Positions 28,697 to 47,394 of a stretch of 64,000 bases of DNA are shown piece by piece. The notes under the pieces were generated by a model. That model had not been told where the DNA came from. It searched no databases and worked only from the letters and a program-made list of their open reading frames with translations. The DNA comes from a virus (Duplodnaviria; Caudoviricetes), in IMG/VR virus record IMGVR_UViG_3300014204_000120, positions 64,001-128,000 of that record; one strand, 5' to 3'. Position 1 is the stretch's first letter; each line of letters opens with the position of its first letter. The position numbers and the translations under genes are program-made.

Positions 28697-29335
28697 ATGG
28701 TCAATTTTAAAGAATACATTAAAAAACTTGAAACAAATCAATTAGTTGAAACTAGTTTGTCTAGAGTATGGTCTTATATGGAAAAGTATGAGACTGGAAT
28801 TATAACTGCTTTTAGATATGCTGAAGATTGTGGAAATGGAAAGAAATATAGTAGACACGAAAACAAACAACGTAATAGATCTTTATTGGCTAAGTTAAGA
28901 AATATGGGTTATGGAGTAACAGCTGTTCAAGGAACATGGATAAACAATGCTGGGCTAAAAAGTGCTGAAACATCTTACTTTGTTGTAGATATAGAAAATA
29001 TTGGAAAACTTAAAAATAATCTTATTGAGTTAGGTACAGAGTTTGATCAAGATGCAATTTTATGGATTCCTAAAGGTGGAAAGAATGCAGAAATGATTGC
29101 TACTAATCAATGTGAAAATGGATTTCCTGGACCTAATAAAGTTAAGATTTTTAGTGGAGTATACTTTGGAGATAAAGGAACCGTGTTTACTAGAGTTGGG
29201 GATAGACCATTTATATTTAAGGAAGATTTTATAGTTAAAGATATAACAATTCCTCCTCATGGTTTTATGGGAGTATTAGGTTGTAATACTTTTTCAAAAA
29301 TGAAATGGCAGAATATATCAGTAGATAAGGATTAA
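28697..29335 (+). CDS. Phage protein, ES.LSR...IITAFR family (paralog 1)
   Basis: ETSLSRV, GIITAFR, N..RN..L, LG.EF.Q.AI. Confidence 0.75.
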   Translation: MVNFKEYIKKLETNQLVETSLSRVWSYMEKYETGIITAFRYAEDCGNGKKYSRHENKQRNRSLLAKLRNMGYGVTAVQGTWINNAGLKSAETSYFVVDIENIGKLKNNLIELGTEFDQDAILWIPKGGKNAEMIATNQCENGFPGPNKVKIFSGVYFGDKGTVFTRVGDRPFIFKEDFIVKDITIPPHGFMGVLGCNTFSKMKWQNISVDKD

Positions 29336-29338
29336 TAT

Positions 29339-29986
29339 ATGAGTGAATTTAAAGAATATATTAAACAACATGAGTTAAATCCACTTGTTGAATCAGGATT
29401 ATCACGAATATATGATATGATGAAACTGCATGATTGCGGTATTATTACAGCTTTTAGAAGTTATGCAGATTGTGGTAAAGGTGCAAAATATTCAATAGCA
29501 GATAATAGAAAAAGAAATAAGTCGTTGTTAGCTAAACTTCAGGATAAAAGATACGGAGTTACTAATGTTCAAGGTGCATGGATTGAGAATATGGGAACAG
29601 ATTTTGAAAAGTCTGGTGCAGAAACATCTTTTTTTGTAGTTGATTTAAATGATAATGGAACTTTAGAAAAGGATTTACAATCTTTAGGAGAAGAATTTGA
29701 ACAAGAAGCTATCTTATGGATTCCTAAAGGTGGTGAGTCTGCAACTTTTATTGGAACTAATCGTTGTCCTAATACAAGAATTAAATACGGTGAAAAACAA
29801 GTTGTAGGTAAAAGATTTTTAGGTAAGAAAAGTGAATTCTTTACATCTATTTCTAATAGACCATTTGTATTTGAAAATATTAAAGATATACATGAACTTG
29901 TATTACCTGAAGGATTTTTTAGTCGTTGGGTCTGTAATTCATGTGCTAAAAAGAAATGGCAGGATATGAAAGTAGAGGAAAATTAA
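29339..29986 (+). CDS. Phage protein, ES.LSR...IITAFR family (paralog 2)
   Basis: Closely similar to 28697 over full length. Confidence 0.75.
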   Translation: MSEFKEYIKQHELNPLVESGLSRIYDMMKLHDCGIITAFRSYADCGKGAKYSIADNRKRNKSLLAKLQDKRYGVTNVQGAWIENMGTDFEKSGAETSFFVVDLNDNGTLEKDLQSLGEEFEQEAILWIPKGGESATFIGTNRCPNTRIKYGEKQVVGKRFLGKKSEFFTSISNRPFVFENIKDIHELVLPEGFFSRWVCNSCAKKKWQDMKVEEN

Positions 29987-29988
29987 TT

Positions 29989-30699
29989 ATGGACTATAAA
30001 AATTTTATAGATTGTAAAAATTTATATCAATTAGATTATTATGGAGAAACTATAAGAGTTTTTAAAGGGCTAAAGCTTTATGAACAAGGATGTCCAAATT
30101 TAAGTGTTATAAGTGAATCTTCATTAAGTCATATATTAGATTTAATGCAAAAACAGACATTTGCTATAATTTCCGCGCATTTAGCAATGTTTGATCGTAA
30201 AGAAAACATTTTAAGAAATAGAAAATTAAGAGCTATATTTAATAATGCTAAAATGGGAGTTCATTCATTAATAGGGCATTGGAGAGAATGTCAGTTAAAA
30301 GGTACAGATAACAATCCAATTAAATATCAAGATTGTCCTGAAAATAAATTAGTTGATGTGATTGAAAGAAGTTATTTAGTTATTAAACCAAATAATATGA
30401 TTTATGATGATTTTGAAAATCTTATTCGTGACGCTATGACTATCGACGGAGAAGTACAAAACGGAGTAATTATTAAAAATGCAAAAGGCGATTATGTTGT
30501 AATGGATAAACAAGGAGTTAAATTTAAAATTGGAAATAATATTAAACTTAATAAAATAGCTCAAGCATATTCACAACACATTAAAAAACAAAATGTTCCT
30601 TTTATGTTTGAAGGTTTAGAAGTACCAAATGGGTCTATAATGTCATATCAAATATGGAACAATAAAGAACAAAATTTTAGATATGATAAGGTGGATTAA
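29989..30699 (+). CDS. Phage protein, ES.LSR family (paralog 3)
   Basis: ESSLSHI, AIISAH, ENILRNRKL, ERSYLV; start moved to ATG 29989. Confidence 0.7.
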   Translation: MDYKNFIDCKNLYQLDYYGETIRVFKGLKLYEQGCPNLSVISESSLSHILDLMQKQTFAIISAHLAMFDRKENILRNRKLRAIFNNAKMGVHSLIGHWRECQLKGTDNNPIKYQDCPENKLVDVIERSYLVIKPNNMIYDDFENLIRDAMTIDGEVQNGVIIKNAKGDYVVMDKQGVKFKIGNNIKLNKIAQAYSQHIKKQNVPFMFEGLEVPNGSIMSYQIWNNKEQNFRYDKVD

Positions 30700-30702
30700 A
30701 TT

Positions 30703-31404
30703 ATGAGTTTTAAACAATATATAAAGAATAAAAATGAGCAACTAATAATAGAGTCTGGGTTTTCTAGATTGGCTCAAATTATTACCGGATTAGTACCAAG
30801 TGTTAAAACTTTTGCTTTTGTAACATGGGAAAATCCAATGAATCAAGAATTAAACAAAAAAGAAAACGAAGATAGAAATAATCGGTTAAAAAGTCAATTA
30901 AGAAGTGGAGCATATGGTTTTATTCAAATACATGGTAAATATGATTATTTAGAAAATCCATATTTTATTTTAAATATAACTGAAAAAAATGCTATTGAAT
31001 TAGGCAAAGAAGGAAAACAAGAATCTGTTATCTTTGGCTTTGGAGAAGTTAAAGATAAATTTAATATTACTTTTAAAATGATATATTGTTTTACCGATCA
31101 AATACTTGTTAGGAGAGTGCGGCGAACTCGTGAAGAAAACAATTATTATTCAGAATATAAAGGTGGAAAATTTCAAATACCATTTTTTGATGATCACTTT
31201 AAAACAGCTAAGTTTGATAAAGGTAAAATAGTTAAAGATTCATATAATATATTTTATCAAAAAGACTTTCCAGAAGAAATTATTAATGAAGTAGAAAAGC
31301 GTGTATCAGATAGATATGATGAAAAATTGATTGGAAAACATCACTGGCTTATGCGCGGTATATCTTTTGAAATGCTTAAAGAATATCTACAAAACAAATC
31401 TTGA
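30703..31404 (+). CDS. Phage protein, ES.LSR family (paralog 4)
   Basis: ESGFSRL, TWENP, ENEDRNNRL, LGKEGKQESVI. Confidence 0.7.
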   Translation: MSFKQYIKNKNEQLIIESGFSRLAQIITGLVPSVKTFAFVTWENPMNQELNKKENEDRNNRLKSQLRSGAYGFIQIHGKYDYLENPYFILNITEKNAIELGKEGKQESVIFGFGEVKDKFNITFKMIYCFTDQILVRRVRRTREENNYYSEYKGGKFQIPFFDDHFKTAKFDKGKIVKDSYNIFYQKDFPEEIINEVEKRVSDRYDEKLIGKHHWLMRGISFEMLKEYLQNKS

Positions 31405-31429
31405 CAATATTTTTGGAAGATATTATATT
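31401..31429 (+). promoter_or_regulatory. Sigma70-type promoter TTGACA-17-TATATT
   Basis: Perfect -35 and 17-nt spacer upstream of ligase operon. Confidence 0.8.
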
Positions 31430-31461
31430 TGTAATACACATCATACAGAAAGGATGTTTAA

Positions 31462-31728
31462 ATGTATTCAGTCTATTCACTTAGAAAGAATGGTTATCGT
31501 GTATGGGTTCAGCACATTCGACCTGTTATAACAATTCAAGATGATAATAATAATTTTCGGGATGAAGTACTTTCTCGTGGTGGAGAAACTAAGGTTGAAG
31601 TTAGAGTTAGGGATACAGACGCTTTGATTGGTGTAGGTACAGCTCGTTGTAGTTTAAAAGATAATTATAATAAGAAATTGGGCGTTCAAATTGCTTTAGG
31701 TAGAGCATTATGTGGTAAACTAAGTTAA
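31462..31728 (+). CDS. Conserved phage hypothetical protein
   Basis: GGET...G.ARCS..DNYNKKLG..IALGRA pattern. Confidence 0.7.
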   Translation: MYSVYSLRKNGYRVWVQHIRPVITIQDDNNNFRDEVLSRGGETKVEVRVRDTDALIGVGTARCSLKDNYNKKLGVQIALGRALCGKLS

Positions 31729-31742
31729 AAAGGAGTTATTTG

Positions 31743-32852
31743 ATGTCTTTATCATATGATGAAATGAAGTTGAAGTTAATTCAGGCGTGTGATTCTTATT
31801 ATAATAAATCATTTTCTTTTATAACAGATAAAGAATTTGATGACCTTAAAGATGCGTTTAAAGAACAATATCCAGATGATCCGTTTTTAAAAACCATTGG
31901 TGCTCCTGTTCCTGAAGCTTCTGATTGGTCTAAAGTAAAACATAGTATTCCTATGTGTTCGTGTAATAAGGTTAAAACTGTTGATGAATTTATAGATTGG
32001 TGTGCTTCTAATCGTTTTGATGCAGATACAGCTTTAATTACATCAGAAAAGTTAGATGGAATGTCTTTATCAATAGATTATATTAATGGTAAATTAGTTA
32101 ATGGTATTACTCGTGGAGATGGTTTTATTGGTGAAGCAATTACACAAAATGTAATTAAAATGCAAAATGTTAAAGTTAATCTTGATAATAAGTATACTGG
32201 GAGTCTGCGTGGTGAAGTTCTATTAAATAAAAATGATTTTAAGGCTGTTAATTTAATATGTGAAGCTCGTGGTGAAAAAGGATTTCAGAACATACGTAAT
32301 GGAGCTTCTGGTATAGCTAAAAGATATGACTCTAAGTATTCAGAATATCTATATGTAAGATATTATTATGCTTCTGGTGATTTTAAAACCAAATCAGAAA
32401 TGTATCAATTTATTGAATCATTAGGTTTAAAAACATGTAAACATTTTTCTGGAAACTTTGAAACATCTAAAATAGTTTATAATGAATACGAACAATCTAT
32501 TAGAGCAGGATTGGATCATGCCATTGATGGATTAGTTATAGAACCAGATAATATTGAAACGCTTAATGATTTAGGTATGCTTAATGAGAATTTGAGAGGT
32601 CAAATTGCTTGGAAGTTTACTAGTGAAACAGCAATGACTAAGATTAAGGATATTGTCTGGCAGTTGGGTAACAGTTCGCGTATCACTCCTGTTGCAATTT
32701 TAGAGACAGTAGAATTAAATGGAGTTAATATTAGTCGTGCAACAATGCATAATTTAGATATATTTGAAAAGTTAAAGCCGTATAAAGGGGCTACTTGTTT
32801 AATATCAAGACGTGGTGATGTAATTCCTTTTATTGAAAAAGTTTATCCTTAA
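31743..32852 (+). CDS. ligA: NAD-dependent DNA ligase, N-terminal part (adenylation + OB domains)
   Basis: EKLDG (KxDG), TRGDG, RGEV, RNGASG, DGLVI, AWKF, ITPVA, RATMHN, RRGDVIP; stops before Zn finger. Confidence 0.93.
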   Translation: MSLSYDEMKLKLIQACDSYYNKSFSFITDKEFDDLKDAFKEQYPDDPFLKTIGAPVPEASDWSKVKHSIPMCSCNKVKTVDEFIDWCASNRFDADTALITSEKLDGMSLSIDYINGKLVNGITRGDGFIGEAITQNVIKMQNVKVNLDNKYTGSLRGEVLLNKNDFKAVNLICEARGEKGFQNIRNGASGIAKRYDSKYSEYLYVRYYYASGDFKTKSEMYQFIESLGLKTCKHFSGNFETSKIVYNEYEQSIRAGLDHAIDGLVIEPDNIETLNDLGMLNENLRGQIAWKFTSETAMTKIKDIVWQLGNSSRITPVAILETVELNGVNISRATMHNLDIFEKLKPYKGATCLISRRGDVIPFIEKVYP

Positions 32853-32872
32853 CATTTTAATAAGGAGTTTTG

Positions 32873-33325
32873 ATGCATTATAGAACTGTTAAAAGTATAG
32901 TTGAGAATGAGATAGATATGGCTTCTGAGTTTACATTATGTGGTATTATTATAGATGAGGATAGTTTTGAGGGGTTTTTAGAAAATGTTAAAGCTGAAAT
33001 ATTAGAAGAAATTCATGAGAAGTATGCATTTATTTCAACTAATAATATTTTATGTCATCCAGATGGTTTTGTATTGTTTGGTAGATTTATAAATGATTTG
33101 GATGAAAATAAAACTATTGCGCAGTCTAAGTCTGAAATGATGGATGATTTTTTAAAGTACGGATTATTTAATAACAACTTACAAGTTGTGAGTAAAGGAG
33201 TTGTTTTTTTATCAGGTATATTAGTGGATAATGATGATATTGAAGATGCAGAAGTAACTGAACAAAATGAATCACAAGTTAAAGGTATTGAAGAAGCAAT
33301 TAAAAAAGAAAGAAGTGAATTATGA
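32873..33325 (+). CDS. Acidic hypothetical protein
   Basis: ORF with AAGGAG RBS. Confidence 0.7.
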   Translation: MHYRTVKSIVENEIDMASEFTLCGIIIDEDSFEGFLENVKAEILEEIHEKYAFISTNNILCHPDGFVLFGRFINDLDENKTIAQSKSEMMDDFLKYGLFNNNLQVVSKGVVFLSGILVDNDDIEDAEVTEQNESQVKGIEEAIKKERSEL

Positions 33326-33873
33326 AGATTAGAAATGGATTTGTAAGTAACAGTTCTTCAAGTTCATTTATTGTTTATTTTGAAAAGCTTCCTGAAAATG
33401 TAGATGAACTTAAAAAAATGTTGTTTGGCGATAGAAAAGAATATCATTCACCATATAGCGAAGGTTTTTGGTCAACAGATCAAATAGCTGAAATTGTATG
33501 GAATGATATGCAAGAAAATAAAAATGCTACTGTTAAAGAAATTGTAGAAGATATTAAATCAGGTCATCCAGTAAATGATCCTATAGTTGAATCTATTATA
33601 GGTCAATATAATAAAATGCCGGATTACTTTAGTTATAAAAAACCAGGAACAGATGAAAAGACACCTTGGAATGAAAGATATGATAATGATACTTATGAAA
33701 AAGCATTAGATGAATATTTAAAACCTTATATAAACATGATTGATAAAGCTGCAGTTAAAGAAAAAAGAGCATTTAGATTTGAATATAGTGATAATGATGG
33801 CGAATTATATTCTGCAATGGAACACGGTAATTTGTTTGATAAAGTTAAACATCAAAAAATTTCACATCATTGA
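33322..33873 (+). CDS. MKIRxGFVSNSSSSSF-motif protein 1
   Basis: N-terminus MKIRNGFVSNSSSSSF. Confidence 0.85.
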   Translation: MKIRNGFVSNSSSSSFIVYFEKLPENVDELKKMLFGDRKEYHSPYSEGFWSTDQIAEIVWNDMQENKNATVKEIVEDIKSGHPVNDPIVESIIGQYNKMPDYFSYKKPGTDEKTPWNERYDNDTYEKALDEYLKPYINMIDKAAVKEKRAFRFEYSDNDGELYSAMEHGNLFDKVKHQKISHH

Positions 33874-33885
33874 AAGAAAAAAGTA

Positions 33886-34947
33886 ATGATTAAAAAGTAT
33901 CGCTCACCAGAATATAACTATAACTTTAATACGGAAACAGGCTTCTTTGTTAGATGGGGTAAAACATTAGAAGAAGATCCTCGTTTTTCCCCGTTCGGTC
34001 CTGAAATATTAGATCTAGAAATTAGTATTAATGGGTGTCCAAACAAATGCCCAATGTGTTATAAAGATAATACTAATAAACTTCCTACTAATATGTCATT
34101 TGAAACATTTAAATTAATATTAGATAAAATGCCTGATACATTAACTCAAATAGCTTTTGGAATTACTGGTATTCAAACAAATCCAGATTTTATTAAAATG
34201 TTAAAATATACTAAAGAAAAAGGAATTATACCTAATTTTACATTGTCAGGAATCGATTTAACAGATGAAATAGCTAAAGAAGTAGTTAATTATATTGGAG
34301 CTTGTGCTGTGTCAGCTTATGAAAGTAATAAAAATATATGTTATAATACAGTTAAGAAATTTACGGATTTGGGTATTAAACAAACAAACATTCATTTATT
34401 CACATCAAAAGAATCTAAAGATTTTGTATACGAAGTATTAAATGATACATTAATAGATGAAAGATTAAAAAATCTTAATGCTGTTGTTTTGTTAAAATGT
34501 AAACCTAAGGGTAGAGCTGCTAATAATTTTCATGTATTAACTACAAATGAATATAATGATTTGGTTAATTTTTGTTTGAAAAATAATATTAGATATGGAT
34601 TTGATTCTTGCTCAACCCCAGATTTTGAAAATGCTATTGCGATTAATAAAGAGATGTCATTAAAACAGAAGTCTGATTTATTAATGATGTCAGAAAGTTG
34701 TGAGAGTTTTGGGTTGTTTTCATCGTATATAGATGTTTATGGAAATTATTATCCGTGTAGTTTTGCTACAGGTGAAGGTGAATGGATAGAAGGATTGTCT
34801 GTTATAAATTGTAATAACTTTTTAAAAGATATATGGTTTAATGAAAAAGTTAATAAATATAGAAATATATCATTAAATACTTGTTATAAAAGCGGTTGTA
34901 GAAAATGTTTAATATTTGATATTAATCCTAAAGATTATGAAATTTAA
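33886..34947 (+). CDS. Radical SAM protein with C-terminal SPASM/Twitch-like domain
   Basis: CPNKCPMC; SCES...YIDVYGNYYPCSF...CRKC. Confidence 0.9.
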   Translation: MIKKYRSPEYNYNFNTETGFFVRWGKTLEEDPRFSPFGPEILDLEISINGCPNKCPMCYKDNTNKLPTNMSFETFKLILDKMPDTLTQIAFGITGIQTNPDFIKMLKYTKEKGIIPNFTLSGIDLTDEIAKEVVNYIGACAVSAYESNKNICYNTVKKFTDLGIKQTNIHLFTSKESKDFVYEVLNDTLIDERLKNLNAVVLLKCKPKGRAANNFHVLTTNEYNDLVNFCLKNNIRYGFDSCSTPDFENAIAINKEMSLKQKSDLLMMSESCESFGLFSSYIDVYGNYYPCSFATGEGEWIEGLSVINCNNFLKDIWFNEKVNKYRNISLNTCYKSGCRKCLIFDINPKDYEI

Positions 34948-34955
34948 GGAACAAT

Positions 34956-35168
34956 ATGAAATCGTCTGAGTTATTTGATAAAGCTTCAAAGATTATTCAA
35001 ATGAAGATAGATTCAATTACTCTTAGTAATCAGGCTATAGTTGATGCTCAAACATTAAAACAAGAAGTTGAAAGTAATAAAAATTATTATTTAGAATTCA
35101 TGGAAGCTAAAGATCTTAATGAAGTTTTAACTGGGCTTAATCACGTTATACCAAAGGGGTCATTATGA
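34956..35168 (+). CDS. Hypothetical protein
   Basis: 70 aa ORF with AAGGA RBS. Confidence 0.6.
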   Translation: MKSSELFDKASKIIQMKIDSITLSNQAIVDAQTLKQEVESNKNYYLEFMEAKDLNEVLTGLNHVIPKGSL

Positions 35169-35470
35169 AGATTAGAAAAGGATTTGTAAGTAATAGTTCT
35201 AGTTCCAGTTTTATTATAATGCAGAAAAGAATGGATTTATCACAAACTGAATTAGATAAACGTAATAAAAAAATATTATTGGATTATGGTATAGATAAAA
35301 GTGATATTAAAGATACTTTAAAAGAATATGAAAAAAATCAACTTATACTAATTTATACTTCAGTAGATCAAAATGCTTTTTCAGGTGAAGGAGAGTCTCC
35401 TGATTCAATTATATATAAGTTAATGGAAAAATTAAACATTAAGGATATTACAATAAAAATAGAAGATTAG
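35165..35470 (+). CDS. MKIRxGFVSNSSSSSF-motif protein 2
   Basis: MKIRKGFVSNSSSSSF. Confidence 0.85.
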   Translation: MKIRKGFVSNSSSSSFIIMQKRMDLSQTELDKRNKKILLDYGIDKSDIKDTLKEYEKNQLILIYTSVDQNAFSGEGESPDSIIYKLMEKLNIKDITIKIED

Positions 35471-35478
35471 GAGAAAAT

Positions 35479-35988
35479 ATGAAAATTAGAAAAGGATTTG
35501 TTAGTAATTCAAGTAGTTCATCTTATATTATTACATTAGATAAGAATAAAGCAGATTTTTTAGCAGATATGGTTACAGCTTATGAATATGGAGCATTTAA
35601 TGTAAACTATATTGTTGAAAATATAAAAAAGACAATTAAGGAATGCGAAGAACCAGATCAAGTAAGTATTTCTTTTATGGCAGAACATATGCAAAATCGT
35701 ATTAATGATTTAAAGTTATTGTTAGAAAAAATATACGATTTAACTAAAATTGAAGACGAAGATAAGAATAGTAGATATTATGTGTGTAATACTTCGGTTA
35801 TAGAATTGTTATTAAACGAATATTATAATGTGAAAATTGAAGAATTAACTAAGATTATTAATGTTTCTGGTTGGACCCCTATGCATAATAGTTATAATGA
35901 TATGCCAGAAATATTGAAGGATATTATTATTTGGTATACATTTGAAGATCCTAAGGTTATTTTAAAAACTAAACAAATAGAAGAATAA
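35479..35988 (+). CDS. MKIRxGFVSNSSSSSF-motif protein 3
   Basis: MKIRKGFVSNSSSSSY. Confidence 0.85.
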   Translation: MKIRKGFVSNSSSSSYIITLDKNKADFLADMVTAYEYGAFNVNYIVENIKKTIKECEEPDQVSISFMAEHMQNRINDLKLLLEKIYDLTKIEDEDKNSRYYVCNTSVIELLLNEYYNVKIEELTKIINVSGWTPMHNSYNDMPEILKDIIIWYTFEDPKVILKTKQIEE

Positions 35989-35997
35989 GGAGAAAAT

Positions 35998-36345
35998 ATG
36001 AAAATTAGAAATGGGTTTGTAAGTAATAGTAGTTCTAGTTCTTTTATTGTTGCTGTAAAAAAGAATACTAAAGTAAAATTTACTGGTGAAATTGATTTAA
36101 AATCGTTAGCAGACTATGTTTGTGAAGATGAAGACGATTTAATAAAAGCACTTGCAGAGATAGATAATGATGATAAAAAGTTGTTTACTAAATGTTTGAA
36201 ATTGATTGAAGAAGGTAATACAATTTTATTTGGTTCATTTGATGATCAATCCGGTGATACTATAGAAGGAGCTATATGTGAGTGTGGTATAGATAGAAAA
36301 AATAATCCACATGTAACAGTTATTGAAAACGAAGCAGGATACTAA
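35998..36345 (+). CDS. MKIRxGFVSNSSSSSF-motif protein 4
   Basis: MKIRNGFVSNSSSSSF. Confidence 0.85.
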   Translation: MKIRNGFVSNSSSSSFIVAVKKNTKVKFTGEIDLKSLADYVCEDEDDLIKALAEIDNDDKKLFTKCLKLIEEGNTILFGSFDDQSGDTIEGAICECGIDRKNNPHVTVIENEAGY

Positions 36346-36354
36346 GGAGGAAGT

Positions 36355-36753
36355 ATGAAAGTTCGTTTAGGATTTGTAAGTAATAGCAGCTCCAGTTCGT
36401 TTGTATTAGTTGCAGATAAAAAGGATTTTGATGAAGCAATAGTAAAATTACATCCATCAATACAACATGTAATTGGTAGAACTAAAACTGTAAATTTTAA
36501 TGGTAAAGATATTATATGCATTTTAGATCATGAATCAACAGAAGATGTTTGTTTTCAGGATATTTTTGAAGATTATGAAAGTCATAAATTTATAAATCAT
36601 GAAGGAAAAGAAGTTGTATTAACTGAAGAAGAAATGGACGATTGGGATACTATTGAAGGTATAGTATATATGCGTGAAAGCGCTTTGAGAATTTTAAGTG
36701 ATAAAATTAAAAAAATGAAAAAAGATTGTGTTTTTGAAAGTCTTTCTTGTTAA
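36355..36753 (+). CDS. MKIRxGFVSNSSSSSF-motif protein 5
   Basis: MKVRLGFVSNSSSSSF. Confidence 0.85.
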   Translation: MKVRLGFVSNSSSSSFVLVADKKDFDEAIVKLHPSIQHVIGRTKTVNFNGKDIICILDHESTEDVCFQDIFEDYESHKFINHEGKEVVLTEEEMDDWDTIEGIVYMRESALRILSDKIKKMKKDCVFESLSC

Positions 36754-36764
36754 TTGAGAATATT

Positions 36765-37208
36765 ATGAAGATCAGAAAAGGATTTGTAAGTAATAGTTCA
36801 ACTAGTTCATTTTTAATATATGGAATTGCAATTGATAGTGAAGATAGAGATGTTATACTTATAAATGAAATTAAAAAACTGAAAACAATTGAAGAATTTA
36901 AATCAGTTTATAAGTATACAGATGAAGAAATATACAATATAATTCACCAAGAAAATCAAACTGTTGATCAAATTATTGAAAAACTTACTGAAGAATATGA
37001 AGATGATTGGGAAGATCTAAAATCTGATAGTAGTGATTTATTTTTTGGTACTTCTGATGTAGGTTATTATATTGGAAAATCACCACAGAGTGCGCCAAAT
37101 GATATAACTTTTGCTGATTGGAAAAAACAAATTGAAGAAGAAACCAGTGAACTTTTAGGTAAAAAAGTTAAATGTAGTTGGATTGAAGAGGCATGGTCTG
37201 ATGGATAA
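36765..37208 (+). CDS. MKIRxGFVSNSSSSSF-motif protein 6
   Basis: MKIRKGFVSNSSTSSF; start moved to ATG 36765. Confidence 0.85.
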   Translation: MKIRKGFVSNSSTSSFLIYGIAIDSEDRDVILINEIKKLKTIEEFKSVYKYTDEEIYNIIHQENQTVDQIIEKLTEEYEDDWEDLKSDSSDLFFGTSDVGYYIGKSPQSAPNDITFADWKKQIEEETSELLGKKVKCSWIEEAWSDG

Positions 37209-37431
37209 TAAAAAAATCAAACAAGTATTAGTTGATGGTAGAGGTTTTATTTATGCTGAAGGTGATATATCTTCTGGTATATCTCCTTGTAAGTTAGAGT
37301 GGTTTGAAGTTAATGGCGAAATGGCTATTGTTAAATGGATAAAAGCTACTTATCCTGATGGAACTGTAAAAGAATTTAATGGAAAATATATAATTGAAGT
37401 TGAATACTATCCATTGAAAGCGAAGGAGTAA
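37201..37431 (+). CDS. Hypothetical protein
   Basis: ORF coupled to neighbours; start moved to ATG 37201. Confidence 0.6.
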   Translation: MDNKKIKQVLVDGRGFIYAEGDISSGISPCKLEWFEVNGEMAIVKWIKATYPDGTVKEFNGKYIIEVEYYPLKAKE

Positions 37432-37434
37432 TAG

Positions 37435-38235
37435 ATGAATAAGGAATATTTCACTCCACCATTGAATTGCCCTGTATGTAATTGTGAAACTAAACGAGAT
37501 GGAGTTTATTTAATTTGTCCTAATCCTGAATGTTCTGGTGGAAAAATCGGGGATTTGATTAAATGGATTAAAAAGCTTGATTTAAAAGGCGTTGCAGAAG
37601 CTACCTTAGAAAAACTATATAACGCTGAATTAGTGGCAACCCCAGCAGACCTTTATAAATTAAAACCAGAATTAATTGAAAACTTAGAAGGTTTTGGTTC
37701 CAGTTCAGCTAATAAGATTGTTGAAACATTAAATGAAAAGAAAGATATATCGTTTGGTGAGTTTATAGGTGGATTGAATATACCTAATGTTAGTCAAAAA
37801 ACAGCCGAATTGTTAGAACGTAATGGATATGATACCATAAATAAACTATTAGAATCAAAGTCTATTGATTTATCTAATATTAAAGGTATTGGTGAAACTA
37901 CGGCAAATGATATAATTAATGGCATTTCAAAGAAGAAAGATGTTATATTACAATTATTGAATGTTGGTATTAAGATAAAGGAGAAAGTTAAAATGACAAA
38001 GTCACATCCATTGACAGGGAAAAAGGTAGTTTTTACTGGTGCTTTGAATATTAAAAGAAACGAAGCACAGAAAATGGTAATGGAAGTTGGTGGAGAGTGC
38101 CCGTCGTCTTTAAGTAAGGATACTGATTTTCTTGTTATGGCAGATCCAAATTCTGGTTCTTCTAAGGCTGTTAAGGCACAATCATATGGAACAAAAGTTC
38201 TTAGTGAAGATCAATTTATGGAATTGTTTGAATGA
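37435..38235 (+). CDS. ligA: NAD-dependent DNA ligase, C-terminal part (Zn finger, HhH, BRCT)
   Basis: CPVC...CPNPEC, LEGFG, IKGIG HhH motifs, GKKVVFTGAL...SSKAVKA BRCT; own AAGGAG RBS. Confidence 0.92.
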   Translation: MNKEYFTPPLNCPVCNCETKRDGVYLICPNPECSGGKIGDLIKWIKKLDLKGVAEATLEKLYNAELVATPADLYKLKPELIENLEGFGSSSANKIVETLNEKKDISFGEFIGGLNIPNVSQKTAELLERNGYDTINKLLESKSIDLSNIKGIGETTANDIINGISKKKDVILQLLNVGIKIKEKVKMTKSHPLTGKKVVFTGALNIKRNEAQKMVMEVGGECPSSLSKDTDFLVMADPNSGSSKAVKAQSYGTKVLSEDQFMELFE

Positions 38236-38537
38236 ATAGATTAGAATCCGTAGATCAAATACCAAATTTAGGTATTGTTGTTATCTTAGTACAAGTTGAG
38301 TCTAGAACTCCTTGTAAAAAATTTTTAAATGAAATGAACGCTTGTATTAGTGAATTATTAAAAGATGTTAATGCGACTTATTATACTTTAGAATTAACTA
38401 ATGTCATAAAAGAATCATTAGGAGTACATTATATACCAACAGTTATAGTTTATAAGGATGGAAAAGAAACTAAAAGGTTTAATGGTCATTATTGGAGTAA
38501 ATTTCAAATTGCTGGATATATTCGGGAAGGATTATGA
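38232..38537 (+). CDS. Thioredoxin-like protein, degenerate active site
   Basis: SRTPCK in place of WCxxC; GVHYIPTVIVYKDG. Confidence 0.65.
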   Translation: MNRLESVDQIPNLGIVVILVQVESRTPCKKFLNEMNACISELLKDVNATYYTLELTNVIKESLGVHYIPTVIVYKDGKETKRFNGHYWSKFQIAGYIREGL

Positions 38538-39106
38538 AAAAAAAGAAGGATATAAAGAAAGATATAGAAAAGGATATAGATAGTTCTGAAATATTTTCAA
38601 CTGTTAAAGAAATGTTTAGTTCTATAACAGAAAGATTAAAAAATAGACCTTGGTATCAAAAGATCTGGGATTATATTTATTATAGAATTATTGTTAAGAT
38701 ATGGGATATAATTAATCCTGTATATAATTGGCGTAGGTTAAGATTTTTATGGCAAAGAATTACAAGAGGATTTGATGATTCTGATACTTGGAGTTTAGAT
38801 GATACTATAGCTAAGTTTATTTTACCTAGACTTAAAAGATTTCGTGAACTTGAATTAAAAGGATTTCCTGGTAATATATCTAAATTAACATGGGAAGAAG
38901 AAAGTAAGTTAAGTAAAGAAGCATCTGAAGCACATTGGGAACAAATGGAGAAGGATTGGAACGAAATAATAGATAAAATGATTTTAGCATTTGAAACTAT
39001 AGTAAAAGATGATTGGAAAGATATTAATGATATGCAGAACCAAGAAAAAATTATAAATGAAGGATTGAGTTTATTTGCTCAATACCTTAGAGGATTATGG
39101 TGGTAA
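38534..39106 (+). CDS. Conserved phage hypothetical protein
   Basis: DTWSLD.TIA.FILPRL, W..IIDKMI.AF, EGL.LF..Y...LW. Confidence 0.7.
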   Translation: MKKKKDIKKDIEKDIDSSEIFSTVKEMFSSITERLKNRPWYQKIWDYIYYRIIVKIWDIINPVYNWRRLRFLWQRITRGFDDSDTWSLDDTIAKFILPRLKRFRELELKGFPGNISKLTWEEESKLSKEASEAHWEQMEKDWNEIIDKMILAFETIVKDDWKDINDMQNQEKIINEGLSLFAQYLRGLWW

Positions 39107-40587: not shown

Positions 40588-40852
40588 AAAAGAAACTAAA
40601 GAAGAATTTATTAAAATACTGTTTAAACCTTTAGTCGAACTAACCCAAATTCCAAATAAAAAATTGGCTTATAAGATCAATTATATTATTAGAAAATTAA
40701 TTGACGGAACTCTTGATTTTGTTAATGCAATGAATTATATTGATAATAATATGAAAAGTGCCAAAGAAAAGCCAGATGTAGTTATTTGGGGTAAAGTCGC
40801 GCAAATAGTTAAAAATTACTTTAATACTATTAATGCAAGGAAGGTTAAATGA
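40580..40852 (+). CDS. Hypothetical protein
   Basis: Coupled ORF. Confidence 0.55.
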   Translation: MNKKETKEEFIKILFKPLVELTQIPNKKLAYKINYIIRKLIDGTLDFVNAMNYIDNNMKSAKEKPDVVIWGKVAQIVKNYFNTINARKVK

Positions 40853-41418
40853 ATAACGTATTTGTAGACGTTGATACTTTAGTTGATTTTTTTGAAGGTG
40901 GAGCATTACCTGTACCAAATGCAAATTCAATTAAACCGGCTTTAGCAAAGATAACTAAACTTGCTAAAGACGATAAAATTCAAGTAATAAAGTTTAATGA
41001 TGAACACGATGGCAGTGAACCGGAAATGAATTGTAATGGTGGTACTTTTCCATTACATTGTATTAAAGATTCTAGTGGCGCAGCTGGTATCATTGAAACA
41101 GCTAATAAAAGAGCAATTATATTTCCTAAGCAGACATATGATGTATTTGATTCAAAATTAGGTAATAAAAAAGTCGCTTCTTGGTTAATGGAAAATCGCG
41201 TAACTGATGCTTATGTTTATGGTATAGTTGGAAATATTTGTGTAGAATCAGCTGTTATGGGGCTTATTAAGTTAGGTATAAATGTTAATGTGTTTGAAAA
41301 TGCTGTTGTTTGGATGGATTTAGAAAACGGAATTTTATGTAAAGGAATAGATAATCAATATGAATCTATGAAACGTATGAAAAAAGCAGGAGCCCATTTT
41401 GCTATAGCTAGACTTTAA
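40849..41418 (+). CDS. pncA: Nicotinamidase (isochorismatase family)
   Basis: VDVDTLVDFFEGGAL, DEH, FPLHC, K..YDVF, GIVGNICV; next to nadE. Confidence 0.85.
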   Translation: MNNVFVDVDTLVDFFEGGALPVPNANSIKPALAKITKLAKDDKIQVIKFNDEHDGSEPEMNCNGGTFPLHCIKDSSGAAGIIETANKRAIIFPKQTYDVFDSKLGNKKVASWLMENRVTDAYVYGIVGNICVESAVMGLIKLGINVNVFENAVVWMDLENGILCKGIDNQYESMKRMKKAGAHFAIARL

Positions 41419-41430
41419 AAAGGAATATAA

Positions 41431-42324
41431 ATGAAAAATTGTGAATTGGTTATAGAAACTATTCAGAATGAGTTAAAGTCTTATATTCAAAGTCATGATT
41501 TAAAGAGTTTAGTTTTAGGGGTGTCTGGTGGTATTGATTCTACATTATGTGCTGCTTTAGCTAGACCAGTATGTGATAGTTTAAATATTCCTCTTATCGG
41601 TCGAAGTATTCCTATTATTTCAAATAAACAGAACGAAATTGATAGAGCTAAGGCTATTGGTAATTTATATTGTCATAATTTTAAAGAAGTAAGTTTTAAT
41701 GCAACATTTACAGGATTACAAAATTATATATTAGAGGTTGAAGGCATACATGATAAAATATCTGATGGCAATATTAAAGCTAGACTTCGTATGATATATC
41801 TTTATAACATTGCAGGATTAAATAAAGGTATGGTTCTTAGTACAGATAATTATACAGAATATATGCTTGGTTATTGGACCATATGCGGCGATGTTGGGGA
41901 TTATGAACTGATTAAGGCTTTATGGAAAACTGATGTATATGATTTAGCAAGACATATAATGAATAATTCATTAATACAAACTAAAGATTCGTGGAAATCA
42001 GAAGCTTTAAATGCTTGTATTCATGCTACACCAACAGCAGGATTAGGAGTTACTAATAGTGATTTAGATGAACTTGGTGCTGATTCATATGAAGAAGTAG
42101 ATAAGATATTGAAAACTTGGCTAACAACAGATGCAGATTGTTTTTGTTGGGATGATTATTTATATTGGGATGGTAGACCTGAAAAATATGAAGATTTTGT
42201 AACTTATCGTCAAACATTTAAAGATCATCCTGTTGTTCAAAGGTATATTAAATCAATGTTTAAAAGAGAAATTCCTATAAGTAATTCTAGAGCTATATCT
42301 CGTTTAAGTAACATTTGGGTATAA
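41431..42324 (+). CDS. nadE: NH3-dependent NAD+ synthetase
   Basis: GVSGGIDS, NIKARLRM, TDN.TE...GY.T..GD, KTDVY, PTAGL. Confidence 0.93.
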   Translation: MKNCELVIETIQNELKSYIQSHDLKSLVLGVSGGIDSTLCAALARPVCDSLNIPLIGRSIPIISNKQNEIDRAKAIGNLYCHNFKEVSFNATFTGLQNYILEVEGIHDKISDGNIKARLRMIYLYNIAGLNKGMVLSTDNYTEYMLGYWTICGDVGDYELIKALWKTDVYDLARHIMNNSLIQTKDSWKSEALNACIHATPTAGLGVTNSDLDELGADSYEEVDKILKTWLTTDADCFCWDDYLYWDGRPEKYEDFVTYRQTFKDHPVVQRYIKSMFKREIPISNSRAISRLSNIWV

Positions 42325-42355
42325 AACGACTCATACATTAAAAATATGGCCAGAA

Positions 42356-42586
42356 ATGTTTAAAGATGTAGTTTCTGGTATTAAAACATTTGAATATCGT
42401 AAGAATGATAGAGATTATAAAGTTAATGATATATTAGAATTGTGTGAATGGGATCCTGCAACTAATGATTTTACTGATGATAGATTTTATGTTGTTGTTA
42501 CTTATATTATTAAAGGTGGAAGTTTTGGTATTCCAGAAGATTATTGTATTATGAGTATTGTACCTGAAGATGAGGATTTGGAATAA
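42356..42586 (+). CDS. DUF3850/ASCH (PUA-like) domain protein, natural start apparently damaged
   Basis: GIKTFEYRKNDRDYKVND; in-frame HTLKIWPE lies upstream of the first ATG. Confidence 0.75.
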   Translation: MFKDVVSGIKTFEYRKNDRDYKVNDILELCEWDPATNDFTDDRFYVVVTYIIKGGSFGIPEDYCIMSIVPEDEDLE

Positions 42587-42589
42587 TAA

Positions 42590-43225
42590 ATGAGAATAGG
42601 TGTATTTGGTGGGTCTTTTGATCCGCCGCATAAAACTCACTTAAATATTGTACAAGATGTATTACTTCAAGATTTAGTAGATCAAGTTATCGTTATACCT
42701 TCATATATTAGAGAAGATAAAACTAATGTTATAGGACCGGAACATAGATTAAATATGTGTAAGTTATGTTTTGGTCATATTAAAAATGTAATAGTTTCGT
42801 CTTTAGAAATTGATAACAAGTTAAATGGTAAATCACTTTCAACTTTTGAGTTTATATTAAAAGATGAAAGAATTAATAGTTTTGTTGAAAGCCGGGATAA
42901 AAACCAGTATTATAATATTGTTGGTGCAGATTGTATAAAGAACATTAAGACTTGGTGGAATTGGGAAAAGTTAATTGAAACTATTCCTTTTATAGTTTAT
43001 CAAAGACCAACTTATTCTTTTTTAAATGAAGAAGAAATTGAAATAGCTAATATGTTTAAAACTTCACATCATCAAACGGTTCAAAGTAATATTATATATG
43101 ATCATATAAGTTCAACAACTATTAGGTATAATATAATTCATAAACCAGAATATGCTAAAAATATGGTAATAGATAATGTGTGGAACTATATTATTAAACA
43201 TCAACTTTATGGAGCTAAGTTGTGA
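42590..43225 (+). CDS. nadD: Nicotinate-nucleotide adenylyltransferase
   Basis: GVFGGSFDPPHKTH, RLNMC, GAD....KTW, ISSTTIR. Confidence 0.92.
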   Translation: MRIGVFGGSFDPPHKTHLNIVQDVLLQDLVDQVIVIPSYIREDKTNVIGPEHRLNMCKLCFGHIKNVIVSSLEIDNKLNGKSLSTFEFILKDERINSFVESRDKNQYYNIVGADCIKNIKTWWNWEKLIETIPFIVYQRPTYSFLNEEEIEIANMFKTSHHQTVQSNIIYDHISSTTIRYNIIHKPEYAKNMVIDNVWNYIIKHQLYGAKL

Positions 43226-43569
43226 ACATTTTTGTATTAGAAGATGATGAGCAAAGGAAAACGGCTTTTAAAAGAAAGTTTATTGGTCATAATATTACTA
43301 TAATTGATAATATTAAAGAAGCTATTAATATATTATCAACTAATATAGCATTTGATATGATATTTTTAGATCATGATTTAGGCGGTGAAGTATATGTTAA
43401 TTCAGAAAATGAAAATACAGGTTATCAGTTAGCTAAGTGGATAAGTCAACAGAAAAAAATATTAAAAGAATCTATAATAATAGTTCATTCTTTAAATCAA
43501 GTAGGTGCGCAAAATATTAAAGCTGTATTACCTAATGCTTGGTTACAGCCGTTTGCTTGGAAAGAATAA
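43222..43569 (+). CDS. Cyclic-phosphate-processing receiver-like domain protein
   Basis: LEDD..R, FLDHDLG, TGY, VHSLN.VG. Confidence 0.7.
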   Translation: MNIFVLEDDEQRKTAFKRKFIGHNITIIDNIKEAINILSTNIAFDMIFLDHDLGGEVYVNSENENTGYQLAKWISQQKKILKESIIIVHSLNQVGAQNIKAVLPNAWLQPFAWKE

Positions 43570-43583
43570 AGAAAGGATAAGCA

Positions 43584-44822
43584 ATGATTTGGTGGGCTTT
43601 AATAATTCCTCTTGTAGCCGTAATATCTCTTTTAACAAGTAAAAAAATAGTCTTATGGGAATATTTAATACTATTTGGTATACCTAGTGTTGCTATAGTT
43701 ATAACCTATTTTATATCATTAAGTGCTAGACAAATTGATACGGAATATTGGAACGGTTATGTAAACTCTGCTATTTATTATCAATCATGGCAAACATGGG
43801 ATCGGGAAACTTGTTATAAGAATGTTAATTGTCATGAAGTTTGTACTGGGTCTGATGAAAATAAGATATGTTCTGAACATTGTGATAGAGTTGCATATGA
43901 TTGCTCTCATTGTGATAATTATCCTGAAGAATGGGAAGCTTCAGATAATTTAGGTAATGAATGGAGAATTACGTCAGCTACATACGAAACTTGGGCTAAT
44001 ATGTGGCATAATAAGGTTTTTGTAGAATTAAATAGACATATTGAGTTTAATACTGGCCTTTTTGGTGGTTGTGGTAAAGATGGTGATGCATATCGTGTAA
44101 CTTATAATAATGATACTAATAAAATTATACCTGTTGTTATAGGTAAGCATTATATTAATAAAGTTCAAACAACATATAAAGAATTAGATACATCTATTAT
44201 AAATGAATATGAATTGTTTAATTATCCAATATATGATAGATTTAATTATAATCCTGTATTAGGTATTAATGATTTTAAGGTTTCAAAAAGATTGGCTAAT
44301 TGGAACGCTATACTTGGTAAAAGCAAACAAGTTCATATGTTGCTTTTAGTATTTCATAATAAGACTATTGAGGCTGCTGAATATCAAGAAAAGTATTGGA
44401 GGGGTGGAAATAAGAATGAATTTATATTAACTGTAGGTGTTAATAAAGTATGCGAATGGGATTCTACTCTGCCAGGAATAAGTTGCGGTGATATTATACA
44501 ATGGGCCAAAGTTATATCATTTACAGATCAACGTGGGCTTAAAAGTAAAATTGAAAGTATTGTTTCTAATATGAAAAACAATATTGATTATAAAGCTATA
44601 GTTGATACAATGGCTATTAATGTGTCTAAAAGCTTTATACGTAAGGATTGGGATTATTATGATAGTATAAGTGTTCAGCCTTCTAAAACAGCCATTATTA
44701 TAACTTATATCATTACATTTATATTTACTGGTGGAATTGTTTTGTTTGTTTTATTTAATGATATAAACAGAACTGATTTTAAAGAGGAAGAAGAATGGAA
44801 ATACAAACAACTGAAACTTTAA
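43584..44822 (+). CDS. Membrane protein with Cys-rich extracytoplasmic domain
   Basis: Two N-terminal and one C-terminal hydrophobic helices; YWRGGNKNE. Confidence 0.7.
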   Translation: MIWWALIIPLVAVISLLTSKKIVLWEYLILFGIPSVAIVITYFISLSARQIDTEYWNGYVNSAIYYQSWQTWDRETCYKNVNCHEVCTGSDENKICSEHCDRVAYDCSHCDNYPEEWEASDNLGNEWRITSATYETWANMWHNKVFVELNRHIEFNTGLFGGCGKDGDAYRVTYNNDTNKIIPVVIGKHYINKVQTTYKELDTSIINEYELFNYPIYDRFNYNPVLGINDFKVSKRLANWNAILGKSKQVHMLLLVFHNKTIEAAEYQEKYWRGGNKNEFILTVGVNKVCEWDSTLPGISCGDIIQWAKVISFTDQRGLKSKIESIVSNMKNNIDYKAIVDTMAINVSKSFIRKDWDYYDSISVQPSKTAIIITYIITFIFTGGIVLFVLFNDINRTDFKEEEEWKYKQLKL

Positions 44823-45358
44823 TTAAAACTAAGTGGTTGCATTTAAAAGCAACGGAATTTTTAGATAAAGAAGGTAAATCTAACTTTTGGGTATGGGTTC
44901 AAAGGCCTAATAAACAAAAAGCTATCATGATCATACCTAAGATTGTTGATAAGGTATTAGGTGATAAGTTAGTTTTAATTAAAGAAAAACGAATTCCAAT
45001 AGGCTTTTATGATAGAAATTATTATGAATGGGGTTTCCCGGCTGGCTTAGTTAATGATAAAGAAGATATAATTGATGCTGCTAAACGTGAACTTAAAGAA
45101 GAAGTTGGATTAACCTTAAATAAAGTAATTAAAATTAGCCCGTTTGTGTATAATTCAGCCGGTTTGACAGATGAATCAATATCTATGGTATTTTGCGAAG
45201 CTATTGGTGAAATAACTAATAAAAACAATGAATCTACAGAAGATATTGAACCAGTGATATTATCTAAGCCTGAAATCAGTAAATTATTAAATGATTCAAC
45301 ACAAAAATTTGCAGCTAAGGCTTGGATAATATTAAATAACTTTGTAGAAACTATTTAA
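44795..45358 (+). CDS. Nudix hydrolase (ADP-ribose pyrophosphatase-like)
   Basis: FPAGLV....I..AA.RELKEEVG Nudix box; SAGLTDE. Confidence 0.85.
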   Translation: MEIQTTETLIKTKWLHLKATEFLDKEGKSNFWVWVQRPNKQKAIMIIPKIVDKVLGDKLVLIKEKRIPIGFYDRNYYEWGFPAGLVNDKEDIIDAAKRELKEEVGLTLNKVIKISPFVYNSAGLTDESISMVFCEAIGEITNKNNESTEDIEPVILSKPEISKLLNDSTQKFAAKAWIILNNFVETI

Positions 45359-45374
45359 ACGAAAGGAAATAGAT

Positions 45375-46265
45375 ATGGATAATAAGTATAGTTATGGATC
45401 CGTTGAATATAAACTAAACGAAGCTAAAGAAAATATAGACAAGATATTACAAGATATAGTTGAAACTAAGGCTAAATTAGCTGCTGATATTGGTCCGGCT
45501 AAACCAATTACCCCCAGTAATTGTATGGGTCTATTAAAAAGTTCATTAGAATATTATTATCCTTCTTCTTCATATTGGGGTTTTAATAAAGATAATGAAG
45601 ATCATATTAATACTTGTTGTAATAAAGCTGTTCAACATGCTAATGAGTTATTATGTCAATCAAAAACAAAACACGAGGAAAATCTTCAAAACTTAGAGTA
45701 TAATCTTAAAATAAAAACAAATTTAGTTAATATTATGAAATTAGCAGGCATATCAGAAAGATATACTACATACGAATATAAAAGTAATAGATCTAGAAGT
45801 AAAGCTGAGGTAGGTCATATTGCAGGCTATATATCTGATTTAAATAGAACGTTTGTTACTTCAGATGATTACGATGGAGTTGTTAATAGTTATAATAATT
45901 TTATTAAAAGATTAGACGAATGGAAAAATACGTTGTTGAAAAATATTGAATTTAAAAAACAAGAAACTGAAAAACAAGACCTATATATCCGTAAAATTGC
46001 TAAAGCACAAACATTAGCTGAAAAATATAATATAACTGAATATAAAACTAATGAGGAATTAATAAGTCAAGTTAATGAAGTAATGAAAAAAGAATATATT
46101 AAAGAAAATTATCCTGATGGAACATCCTTAGACATTAAATGCTGTGATAGTTGTAGTACTTGGGTTGTTGGTGAGCATAGATGTTCTTGCGGTAATAGAA
46201 GAATAGATTTGAGTACAGAAGGTGATTTCTTTGAGGGATTTAATGCTTATCCAGAAGCATATTAG
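45375..46265 (+). CDS. Hypothetical protein with C-terminal C..C..W...RC.CGNRR motif
   Basis: 296 aa ORF with RBS. Confidence 0.7.
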   Translation: MDNKYSYGSVEYKLNEAKENIDKILQDIVETKAKLAADIGPAKPITPSNCMGLLKSSLEYYYPSSSYWGFNKDNEDHINTCCNKAVQHANELLCQSKTKHEENLQNLEYNLKIKTNLVNIMKLAGISERYTTYEYKSNRSRSKAEVGHIAGYISDLNRTFVTSDDYDGVVNSYNNFIKRLDEWKNTLLKNIEFKKQETEKQDLYIRKIAKAQTLAEKYNITEYKTNEELISQVNEVMKKEYIKENYPDGTSLDIKCCDSCSTWVVGEHRCSCGNRRIDLSTEGDFFEGFNAYPEAY

Positions 46266-46271
46266 ACTCTA

Positions 46272-46301
46272 TTGACATTTTAATGAACAATGATGTATAT
46301 T
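46272..46301 (+). promoter_or_regulatory. Sigma70-type promoter TTGACA-18-TATATT
   Basis: Perfect -35; TGATGTATATT shared with promoter at 62876. Confidence 0.7.
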
Positions 46302-46323
46302 ATATCTAATGGAGTTCAATGTA

Positions 46324-46548
46324 ATGAAGTTGGTTGATTTTAAAAACAAAGATAGATTGCATGTTTATGATAGATCAATAAATTATCAACTTCAAGATAA
46401 AACAATGATATTTATGACTTTTATGATAGATTCTTTTAATACACCACCAGAACTTTCAAATTATGTTTGGAAAGTTCGAAATATATTTATGCAGATTATT
46501 TGGAAATTAAAGGATCAATTAAATGAAACTATTTCATATAAATCATAG
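46324..46548 (+). CDS. Small hypothetical protein
   Basis: First gene after promoter; GGAG RBS. Confidence 0.55.
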   Translation: MKLVDFKNKDRLHVYDRSINYQLQDKTMIFMTFMIDSFNTPPELSNYVWKVRNIFMQIIWKLKDQLNETISYKS

Positions 46549-47389: not shown

Positions 47390-47394
47390 TAAAC

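Follow-up and report, generated by a model that had tools for sequence, protein, structure and literature searches.

Can an NAD+-dependent DNA ligase (LigA) persist as one enzyme when its gene has been cut in two and ten other genes lie between the pieces? This question is raised by a locus at positions 31743-38235 of a 64,000-nucleotide stretch of phage DNA (hereafter the window), which comprises bases 64001-128000 of the 137.8-kb IMG/VR record IMGVR_UViG_3300014204_000120 (CheckV completeness about 53%). An initial annotation of the window described two intact LigA halves 4.6 kb apart and proposed that they form a natural two-subunit ligase, possibly created by the insertion of a radical SAM module. 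Our analysis supports the first part of that proposal, so far as sequence evidence goes, and lends no support to the second. We read the locus as a 'genes-in-pieces' NAD+-dependent ligase composed of two separate polypeptides, broken at a position that recurs in phages and loaded with its intervening cargo after the split, and we assign this reading a probability of roughly 0.8.

Two open genes that jointly cover one ligase

The upstream gene, encoding subunit A, starts at ATG 31743 (369 aa) or TTG 31740 (370 aa). Its product ends in ...RRGDVIPFIEKVYP and is followed by a TAA stop codon at 32850-32852, 7 residues past motif VI. The adenylation domain of NAD-dependent ligases (PF01653, E=8e-42) and the OB fold (PF03120, E=2e-19) are both recognized above the Pfam cut-off, and the E. 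coli LigA structures 2owo and 4glx match at E~1e-36 with an alignment that runs up to residue 388. The 4glx alignment confirms the sequence motifs of the family: motifs I (KxDG), III, IV and V and the OB motif VI are all present. The corresponding residues, K103/D105/G106, R156-G157-E158, D262/G263, K291/F292 and R356/D359/P362, are invariant in 16 stand-alone A halves, as are Y19, Y20, D29 and D33 of domain Ia, which keep the E. coli spacing. The E. coli counterparts of these domain Ia residues, Y22, D32 and D36, are ones that we take to contact nicotinamide mononucleotide (NMN).

The downstream gene encodes subunit B, a protein of 266 aa with the N-terminus MNKEYFTPPLNCPVC that begins 11 residues ahead of the first zinc cysteine. 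Helix-hairpin-helix (HHH_5, 8e-14) and BRCT (9e-14) domains score above the Pfam cut-off. Thermus filiformis LigA (1dgs) aligns over its residues 403-656 (E=4e-28), and chain B of PDB entry 9hu3, deposited as 'DNA ligase subunit B', also matches (E=4e-9). The zinc cysteines C12, C15, C28 and C33 and the BRCT signature T201 G202, G219 G220 do not vary among 15 stand-alone B halves. As the initial annotation had it, B possesses its own ribosome-binding site, an AAGGAG 6 nt ahead of the ATG, and both genes were recovered at the positions it gave with the domains it led us to expect.

Taken together, the two products account for one ligase. Given that the full-length phage ligase family phrog_3869 covers A at profile positions 8-380 (E=3e-91) and B at positions 389-652 (E=2e-59), A and B jointly span the entire enzyme and nothing is missing. 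Their combined length is 635 aa, and fused ligases have a median of 640 aa (range 620-648). The single polypeptide that characterizes LigA is nevertheless absent from the window, since the TAA at 32850 is followed by 4.6 kb of other genes before translation would resume at ATG 37435. The 137.8-kb record holds neither an ATP-dependent ligase nor a second LigA domain; in the half of the genome that was sequenced, the phage has no ligase other than the split enzyme.

The phage is large and uncultured, and has no near relative among sequenced phages. The window has a GC content of about 27%, nearly all of its genes lie on the plus strand, and no tRNA genes were found in it. Megablast of positions 31000-39000 against 50,697 phage records returned no match, and the best ligase match among those records has 34% identity. 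Single-protein scans of viral contigs with subunit A or B as the query found no relatives, and the ligase relatives described below were reached by alignment-based searches instead.

A recurrent break in the OB-to-zinc-finger linker

The survey of fused and split relatives that the initial annotation had suggested covered 85 loci (80 IMG/VR loci and 5 fetched contigs), with 74 fused and 9 split ligases. The B half lies within 10 kb in 9/9 split loci. The nearest database relatives, at 45-66% identity, are a mixture of fused (~640 aa) and split (~370 aa) forms, and stand-alone B halves also occur. Fused ligases at 59-66% identity to the window's enzyme, for example P0003, P0004 and P0007, demonstrate that an uninterrupted allele exists in relatives.

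Termini from across these ligases converge on one short segment. Mapped onto the fused reference P0007, all 22 A ends fall at residues 373-384 and all 21 B starts at residues 365-383, so that every break is bounded by motif VI (364-367) on one side and by the first zinc cysteine (391) on the other. The segment is the most variable part of the region (entropy 2.61 bits, gap fraction 0.13). In the AlphaFold model of P0007 (mean predicted local distance difference test score, pLDDT, 89.6), residues 373-396 form a coil that leads from the last OB strand to the first zinc-finger strand; the pLDDT dip over these residues is only mild. Junction alignment and termini mapping thus bear out the original placement of the break in the linker between the OB fold and the zinc finger.

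What lies in the gap differs from one split locus to another. Gap sizes range from 0.26 to 5.7 kb, and nuclease genes are frequent. The shortest gap (L016, 262 bp) has no open reading frame (ORF) of at least 50 aa, and that of L007 (714 bp) has three small ORFs, one of them homologous to the product of window positions 32870-33325. A TnsA-like nuclease occupies the 784-bp gap of L018/L019 (L018 E=1e-11), a protein with weak HNH-family matches the 1011-bp gap of L006, and a DUF723 protein matching phrog_559, 'HNH endonuclease' (E=9e-74), the 1182-bp gap of L005. The largest gap, 5726 bp, belongs to a high-GC phage (L053:11092-16749) and contains a clamp-loader-like AAA ATPase, a CYTH-domain protein and a RecA-like fragment. 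In two further loci (L073:8655-11113 and L076) B lies upstream of A and divergent from it, with one 159-aa ORF in between; the halves are on opposite strands and hence share no transcript there. These data suggest that the break is a common one in large phages, present in about a tenth of loci, and that it is linked to mobile nuclease genes.

Two other loci of the survey deserve mention. In L008, whose ligase is fused, an HNH endonuclease gene (11906-12586, minus strand) abuts the 3' end of the ligase gene on the opposite strand, and a DUF723-type endonuclease gene (13584-14333, minus strand) follows 1.7 kb further on; mobile nucleases crowd the ligase locus even where the ligase is intact. 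In Serratia phage 2050HW (L002, 4606-6590) the NAD-dependent ligase is annotated as three consecutive coding sequences of 65, 59 and 535 aa. Unlike the linker break, this interruption lies near the N-terminus, and it could reflect frameshifts, sequencing errors or another type of split.

We next compared the constraint acting on the two halves by relating B identity to A identity. Across 325 fused-versus-fused pairs the relation has a slope of 1.00 and a residual standard deviation of 0.042. The window falls on this line (residual -0.005), and L005-L007 do likewise, indicating that neither half is relaxed relative to the other. Terminal branches are ordinary as well, with 0.34 for A (median 0.32) and 0.20 for B (median 0.36). 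Relaxed selection on one half, a concern voiced with the initial annotation, is not what these values show.

Phylogenetic analyses address how often the break arose. A quick maximum-likelihood tree built from 71 A regions requires a minimum of 11 changes of the split label, 6 of them forced by starred branches. The T5-type sequences form a distant, long-branch outgroup, and the window nests among the fused jumbo-phage ligases of phrog_3869. Multiple origins of the split across phages are therefore well supported. An independent origin for the split in the window was also suggested by the quick tree, and we dropped it on the strength of an approximately unbiased (AU) test together with the B tree. 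A single clade for the window, P0002, P0006, P0012 and P0016, defined post hoc after the tree was seen, is not rejected (p-AU 0.557) and scores slightly better; the B tree is poorly resolved and pairs the window's B only with the stand-alone P0122. The window may thus share its split with L005-L007.

Cargo in the gap and its neighbourhood

The gap holds exactly ten plus-strand ORFs (Table 1), the number initially counted. Searches of these ten products against family libraries gave no homing endonuclease, nuclease, transposase or recombinase match, in accord with the earlier statement that the gap lacks inteins, homing endonucleases and transposases, and defence-system models gave no significant match to the gap genes.

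Table 1. Coordinates of the ligase subunits, the intervening genes and the translation signal of subunit B in the window.
Feature	Position	Strand	Basis or remark
LigA N-terminal half, subunit A: domain Ia, nucleotidyltransferase (adenylation), OB fold	31743..32852	+	Pfam, PHROG, structure matches
Acidic 150/151-aa protein, conserved ligase neighbour, no family	32870..33325	+	likely ATG 32873, AAGGAG 32862-32867
Ser-motif paralog 1, N-terminus MKIRNGFVSNSSSSSF	33322..33873	+	phrog_7397 E=1.6e-16, motif scan
Radical SAM / SPASM-type enzyme	33886..34947	+	phrog_7293 E=1.8e-79
70-aa ORF, no family match	34956..35168	+	Pfam, PHROG, NCBIfam searches
Ser-motif paralog 2	35165..35470	+	PHROG, motif scan
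Ser-motif paralog 3	35479..35988	+	PHROG, motif scan
Ser-motif paralog 4	35998..36345	+	motif scan
Ser-motif paralog 5	36355..36753	+	motif scan; C-terminal 89 aa 90% identical in L093
Ser-motif paralog 6	36765..37208	+	PHROG, motif scan; 80% identical in L093
82-aa ORF directly upstream of B; final codons hold the B Shine-Dalgarno sequence	37183..37431	+	85% identical in L093
Shine-Dalgarno AAGGAG of B	37423..37428	+	read from sequence; 6 nt to ATG
LigA C-terminal half, subunit B: Cys4 zinc finger, HhH, BRCT	37435..38235	+	Pfam, PHROG, structure matches

The first gap gene stands apart from the rest. Its product has 41% identity (8e-30) to the ORF directly upstream of B in the L007 gap (L007:4355-4750) and 33% identity (3e-17) to an ORF directly upstream of the fused ligase in L008 (L008:9585-9998). 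An acidic protein of about 130-150 aa therefore stays beside the ligase in three phages, inside the gap in the window and L007 and upstream of the gene in L008. It may work as a factor associated with the ligase, or else mark rearrangement at the locus. For the other nine, the gaps of relatives contain no counterpart, and the radical SAM gene together with the Ser-motif set occurs, among the sampled relatives, only in the window and in L093. The gene at 32870-33325 is an old neighbour of the ligase that lies outside the radical SAM module. Since this first gap gene is common to the L007 gap and the module is absent there, it is more likely that the module came into a gap already present.

An independent metagenome contig, L093, offers a near-twin of the downstream end of the locus. 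Its nucleotide identity to the window is 88% over the final 960 bp of the gap and 97% over the start of B. Directly upstream of B, after the counterpart of the 82-aa ORF, L093 carries an extra 79-aa Cys-rich ORF (L093:961-1200). Synonymous divergence between the window and L093 is 0.26-0.33 in the gap genes next to B and 0.025 in B itself, and this drop of about ten-fold marks a mosaic boundary at the junction of gap and B. The neighbour gene in L007 and L008, the turnover seen in L093 and the mosaic boundary favour accretion over a module that cut the gene; the cargo probably accreted in a pre-existing gap, after the split.

The genes are tightly packed across the locus, and A, the cargo and B may well be co-transcribed in the window. 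Terminator prediction gave no intergenic plus-strand site, the lone plus-strand terminator-like site lying inside the radical SAM gene. Sigma-70-like matches that might serve as a separate promoter for B are no commoner than in shuffled sequence, and the TATAAATA motif does not occur in the gap; promoter scans of this sort carry no information where the phage's own promoter type may differ.

The six Ser-motif paralogs (33322-37208) flank the radical SAM/SPASM-type gene and combine a near-invariant N-terminus, MKIRxGFVSNSS(S/T)SS(F/Y), with unrelated C-terminal parts. Homologs of paralog 1 are found in T4-like Klebsiella, Enterobacter and Cronobacter phages, and GAP161, a T4-like Cronobacter phage, carries this N-terminus at two sites (L011 at 3501 and 7448). 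A KP15-like phage protein shares 40% identity with the product of the radical SAM gene; in the window's product PF04055 and PF13186 both fall under the Pfam cut-off, and matches to NCBIfam radical SAM maturases are weak. Ser-motif and radical SAM genes are not adjacent in the fetched regions of GAP161 and KP15.

Beyond the ligase region, positions 40849-48567 downstream encode isochorismatase-type (PncA-like), NAD synthase, NMNAT-type, Nudix and NAPRTase-type proteins. This NAD salvage cluster is syntenic with L006, L008 and L009, and its linkage to the ligase is in keeping with a phage investing in NAD-dependent ligation. On the other side, immediately upstream of the ligase region (28697-31404), lie four consecutive paralogs of 212-247 aa with similar N-termini (..FKEYIK..) and no counterpart in related loci.

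Assembly, alternatives and known systems

How might two chains act as one ligase? Subunit A, with domain Ia, the nucleotidyltransferase (NTase) domain and the OB fold, would provide the NAD+ site, be adenylylated on the motif I lysine and carry out the nick-sealing chemistry, and subunit B, with the zinc finger, HhH and BRCT domains, would supply the DNA-binding half of the clamp. In LigA the HhH domain is essential for DNA binding, the zinc finger positions HhH against the OB fold, and contacts between NTase and HhH close the clamp (PMC7470946). Because the break leaves the OB, zinc-finger, HhH and NTase surfaces intact, non-covalent reassembly appears to be the most likely mechanism. A and B would come together on nicked DNA through the OB/zinc-finger surface and the clamp-closing NTase-HhH contacts, and a heterodimeric ligase like T5 LigA/LigB would result. 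The OB-to-zinc-finger linker has been broken repeatedly in phage ligases, usually with a free-standing nuclease gene in the gap, and the gap in the window now serves as a landing site for the conserved neighbour, the radical SAM enzyme, the six Ser-motif paralogs and two small ORFs.

Several other explanations of the locus can be set against this two-chain ligase. We give next to no credence to the idea that the halves are rejoined by protein or RNA splicing or by DNA excision, or that the gap is an assembly artefact, and found no point in support of either. Intein fragments are excluded by the combined length of A and B, which equals that of a fused ligase, and none are present at the break, where A ends and B begins within a few residues of motif VI and the zinc cysteine. 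Rfam gave no family at gathering score anywhere in the window, group I and II introns included, and neither repeats flanking the gap nor recombinase families among its genes were detected; on these grounds intron, intein and DNA excision were rejected. The two halves have separate stop or start codons and separate ribosome-binding sites. The artefact that the initial annotation had allowed for is ruled out by identical A proteins in 5 contigs on record, identical B proteins in 4, and the independent sample that yielded L093. It is also extremely unlikely that the ORFs are decaying remnants in a phage that relies on host LigA. The gene is indeed interrupted and a host would supply LigA, but both frames are open, the catalytic, NMN-binding and zinc residues are all kept, neither branch is accelerated, and L093 keeps 98% identity at the start of B where neighbouring genes have diverged to 80-90%.

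That the halves have gone separate ways, with A a lone minimal ligase or adenylyltransferase (or one working with a host factor) and B an independent DNA-binding or BRCT scaffold, might seem natural for genes 4.6 kb apart with unrelated genes between them, and the opposite strands of the halves in L073 and L076 imply that strict co-expression is not required. We nonetheless judge it quite improbable, given that B is retained nearby in every split locus, that the relative rates of A and B equal those in fused enzymes, that the HhH domain is essential for DNA binding and the zinc finger has a positioning role (PMC7470946), and that the T5-type pair was solved together as two chains. The remaining alternative holds that the radical SAM/Ser-motif module broke a fused ligase gene on insertion. 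The restriction of the module to the window and L093 among sampled relatives, together with a gap that lacks a nuclease gene, speaks for such an event. It is nevertheless unlikely, since L005, L006, L007, L016 and L018 are split at the same site without the module, the first gap gene is shared with the L007 gap, one clade for the five closest split forms is compatible with the AU test, the module has no recombinase and the gap no flanking repeats, and even the window and L093 differ from each other in gap content. Of the earlier proposal, then, the natural two-subunit ligase is supported, to the extent that sequence allows, by intact genes, conserved residues, the lack of acceleration in either half, a co-retained B and the T5-type heterodimer, and its creation by the radical SAM module is not supported, relatives being split without it.

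Some observations weigh against the two-chain ligase with later cargo. The enzyme is known here from its sequence alone. The gap in the window is without a nuclease, so that a nuclease origin is drawn from relatives. With a record about 53% complete, a second ligase, fused or ATP-dependent, is possible elsewhere in the genome. The ratio of nonsynonymous to synonymous divergence (dN/dS), which the initial annotation had proposed as a check, is uninformative for the one close pair, the window and L093, where only 3 differences occur over 64 B codons, and divergence from the other relatives is too great for it; the regression of A and B identities was used instead. Finally, the trees come from quick searches and resolve the close clade weakly.

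If the two-chain reading is right, the locus provides a further natural example of a LigA that tolerates a cut at the OB-to-zinc-finger linker, with halves that keep normal constraint despite kilobases of unrelated genes between them. Such pairs would be useful for split-ligase engineering and for annotation, where half-length 'ligase' calls should be paired and not flagged as pseudogenes. A bolder idea, possible but doubtful, is that the linker serves as a recurrent 'safe harbour' in which the ligase halves act as homology arms that move gap cargo between co-infecting phages. Consistent with it are a gap content that differs in each split lineage, the changes in the gap from the window to L093 and the roughly ten-fold fall in synonymous divergence at the entry into B. 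Were it true, the split ligase would be a site of cargo exchange, more than a scar.

Among known systems, the closest likeness is to the T5-type ligase. T5 ligA/ligB are named in PMC3632103, and ligase subunits A and B are annotated in T5-like phages across the Demerecviridae; the distance between them is 200 bp in phage OSYSP, and in Vibrio phage Ceto it is 1.1 kb and includes two small ORFs. PHROGs holds the half-length ligase families phrog_3359 and phrog_3498, which match the window halves at 1e-46 and 7e-34. PDB entries 9hu3/9i5i, described as 'DNA ligase (NAD+)' with 'DNA ligase subunit B', represent the T5-type heterodimer, with E=1.9e-103 for the match between their chain A and a T5-like subunit A. 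Like the T5-type enzyme, the window ligase consists of two ORFs with their own stop and start, divided within a few residues of the same point in the OB-to-zinc-finger linker into subunits with the same domains. In contrast to T5-type genes, which are adjacent to about 1.1 kb apart, the window halves are 4.6 kb apart with ten genes between them, and the window enzyme is not of T5 descent: its best PHROG is the full-length phrog_3869 and the T5-type sequences are an outgroup, so that common descent with the Demerecviridae subunits is not found.

A second parallel lies in genes cut into working pieces by free-standing homing endonucleases, such as Aeh1 nrdA/mobE, T4 topoisomerase 39/60 with mobA and Aeromonas phage 43A/43B (PMC2988022). 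The window ligase resembles the Aeh1 nrdA/mobE type in that an essential replication enzyme is in two translated pieces that would have to reassemble and fused alleles occur in relatives. The nuclease in the gap that marks that type is matched by the relatives L005, L006 and L018 (HNH/DUF723, TnsA-like); the window gap, unlike it, has no nuclease and holds a multi-gene cargo of unrelated function instead. Relative to the split loci of our survey (L005, L006, L007, L016, L018/L019, L053, L073/L076), the linker break is alike and the gap content different. Relative to the single-chain LigA of E. coli (2owo) and T. filiformis (1dgs), domains and motifs come in the same order on two polypeptides in place of one. 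Two-piece phage ligases and endonuclease-split genes are both established, and the locus therefore introduces no new principle. The two-piece ligase is not a new kind of enzyme; only its ten-gene cargo is unusual, and even the size of the gap is paralleled in L053.

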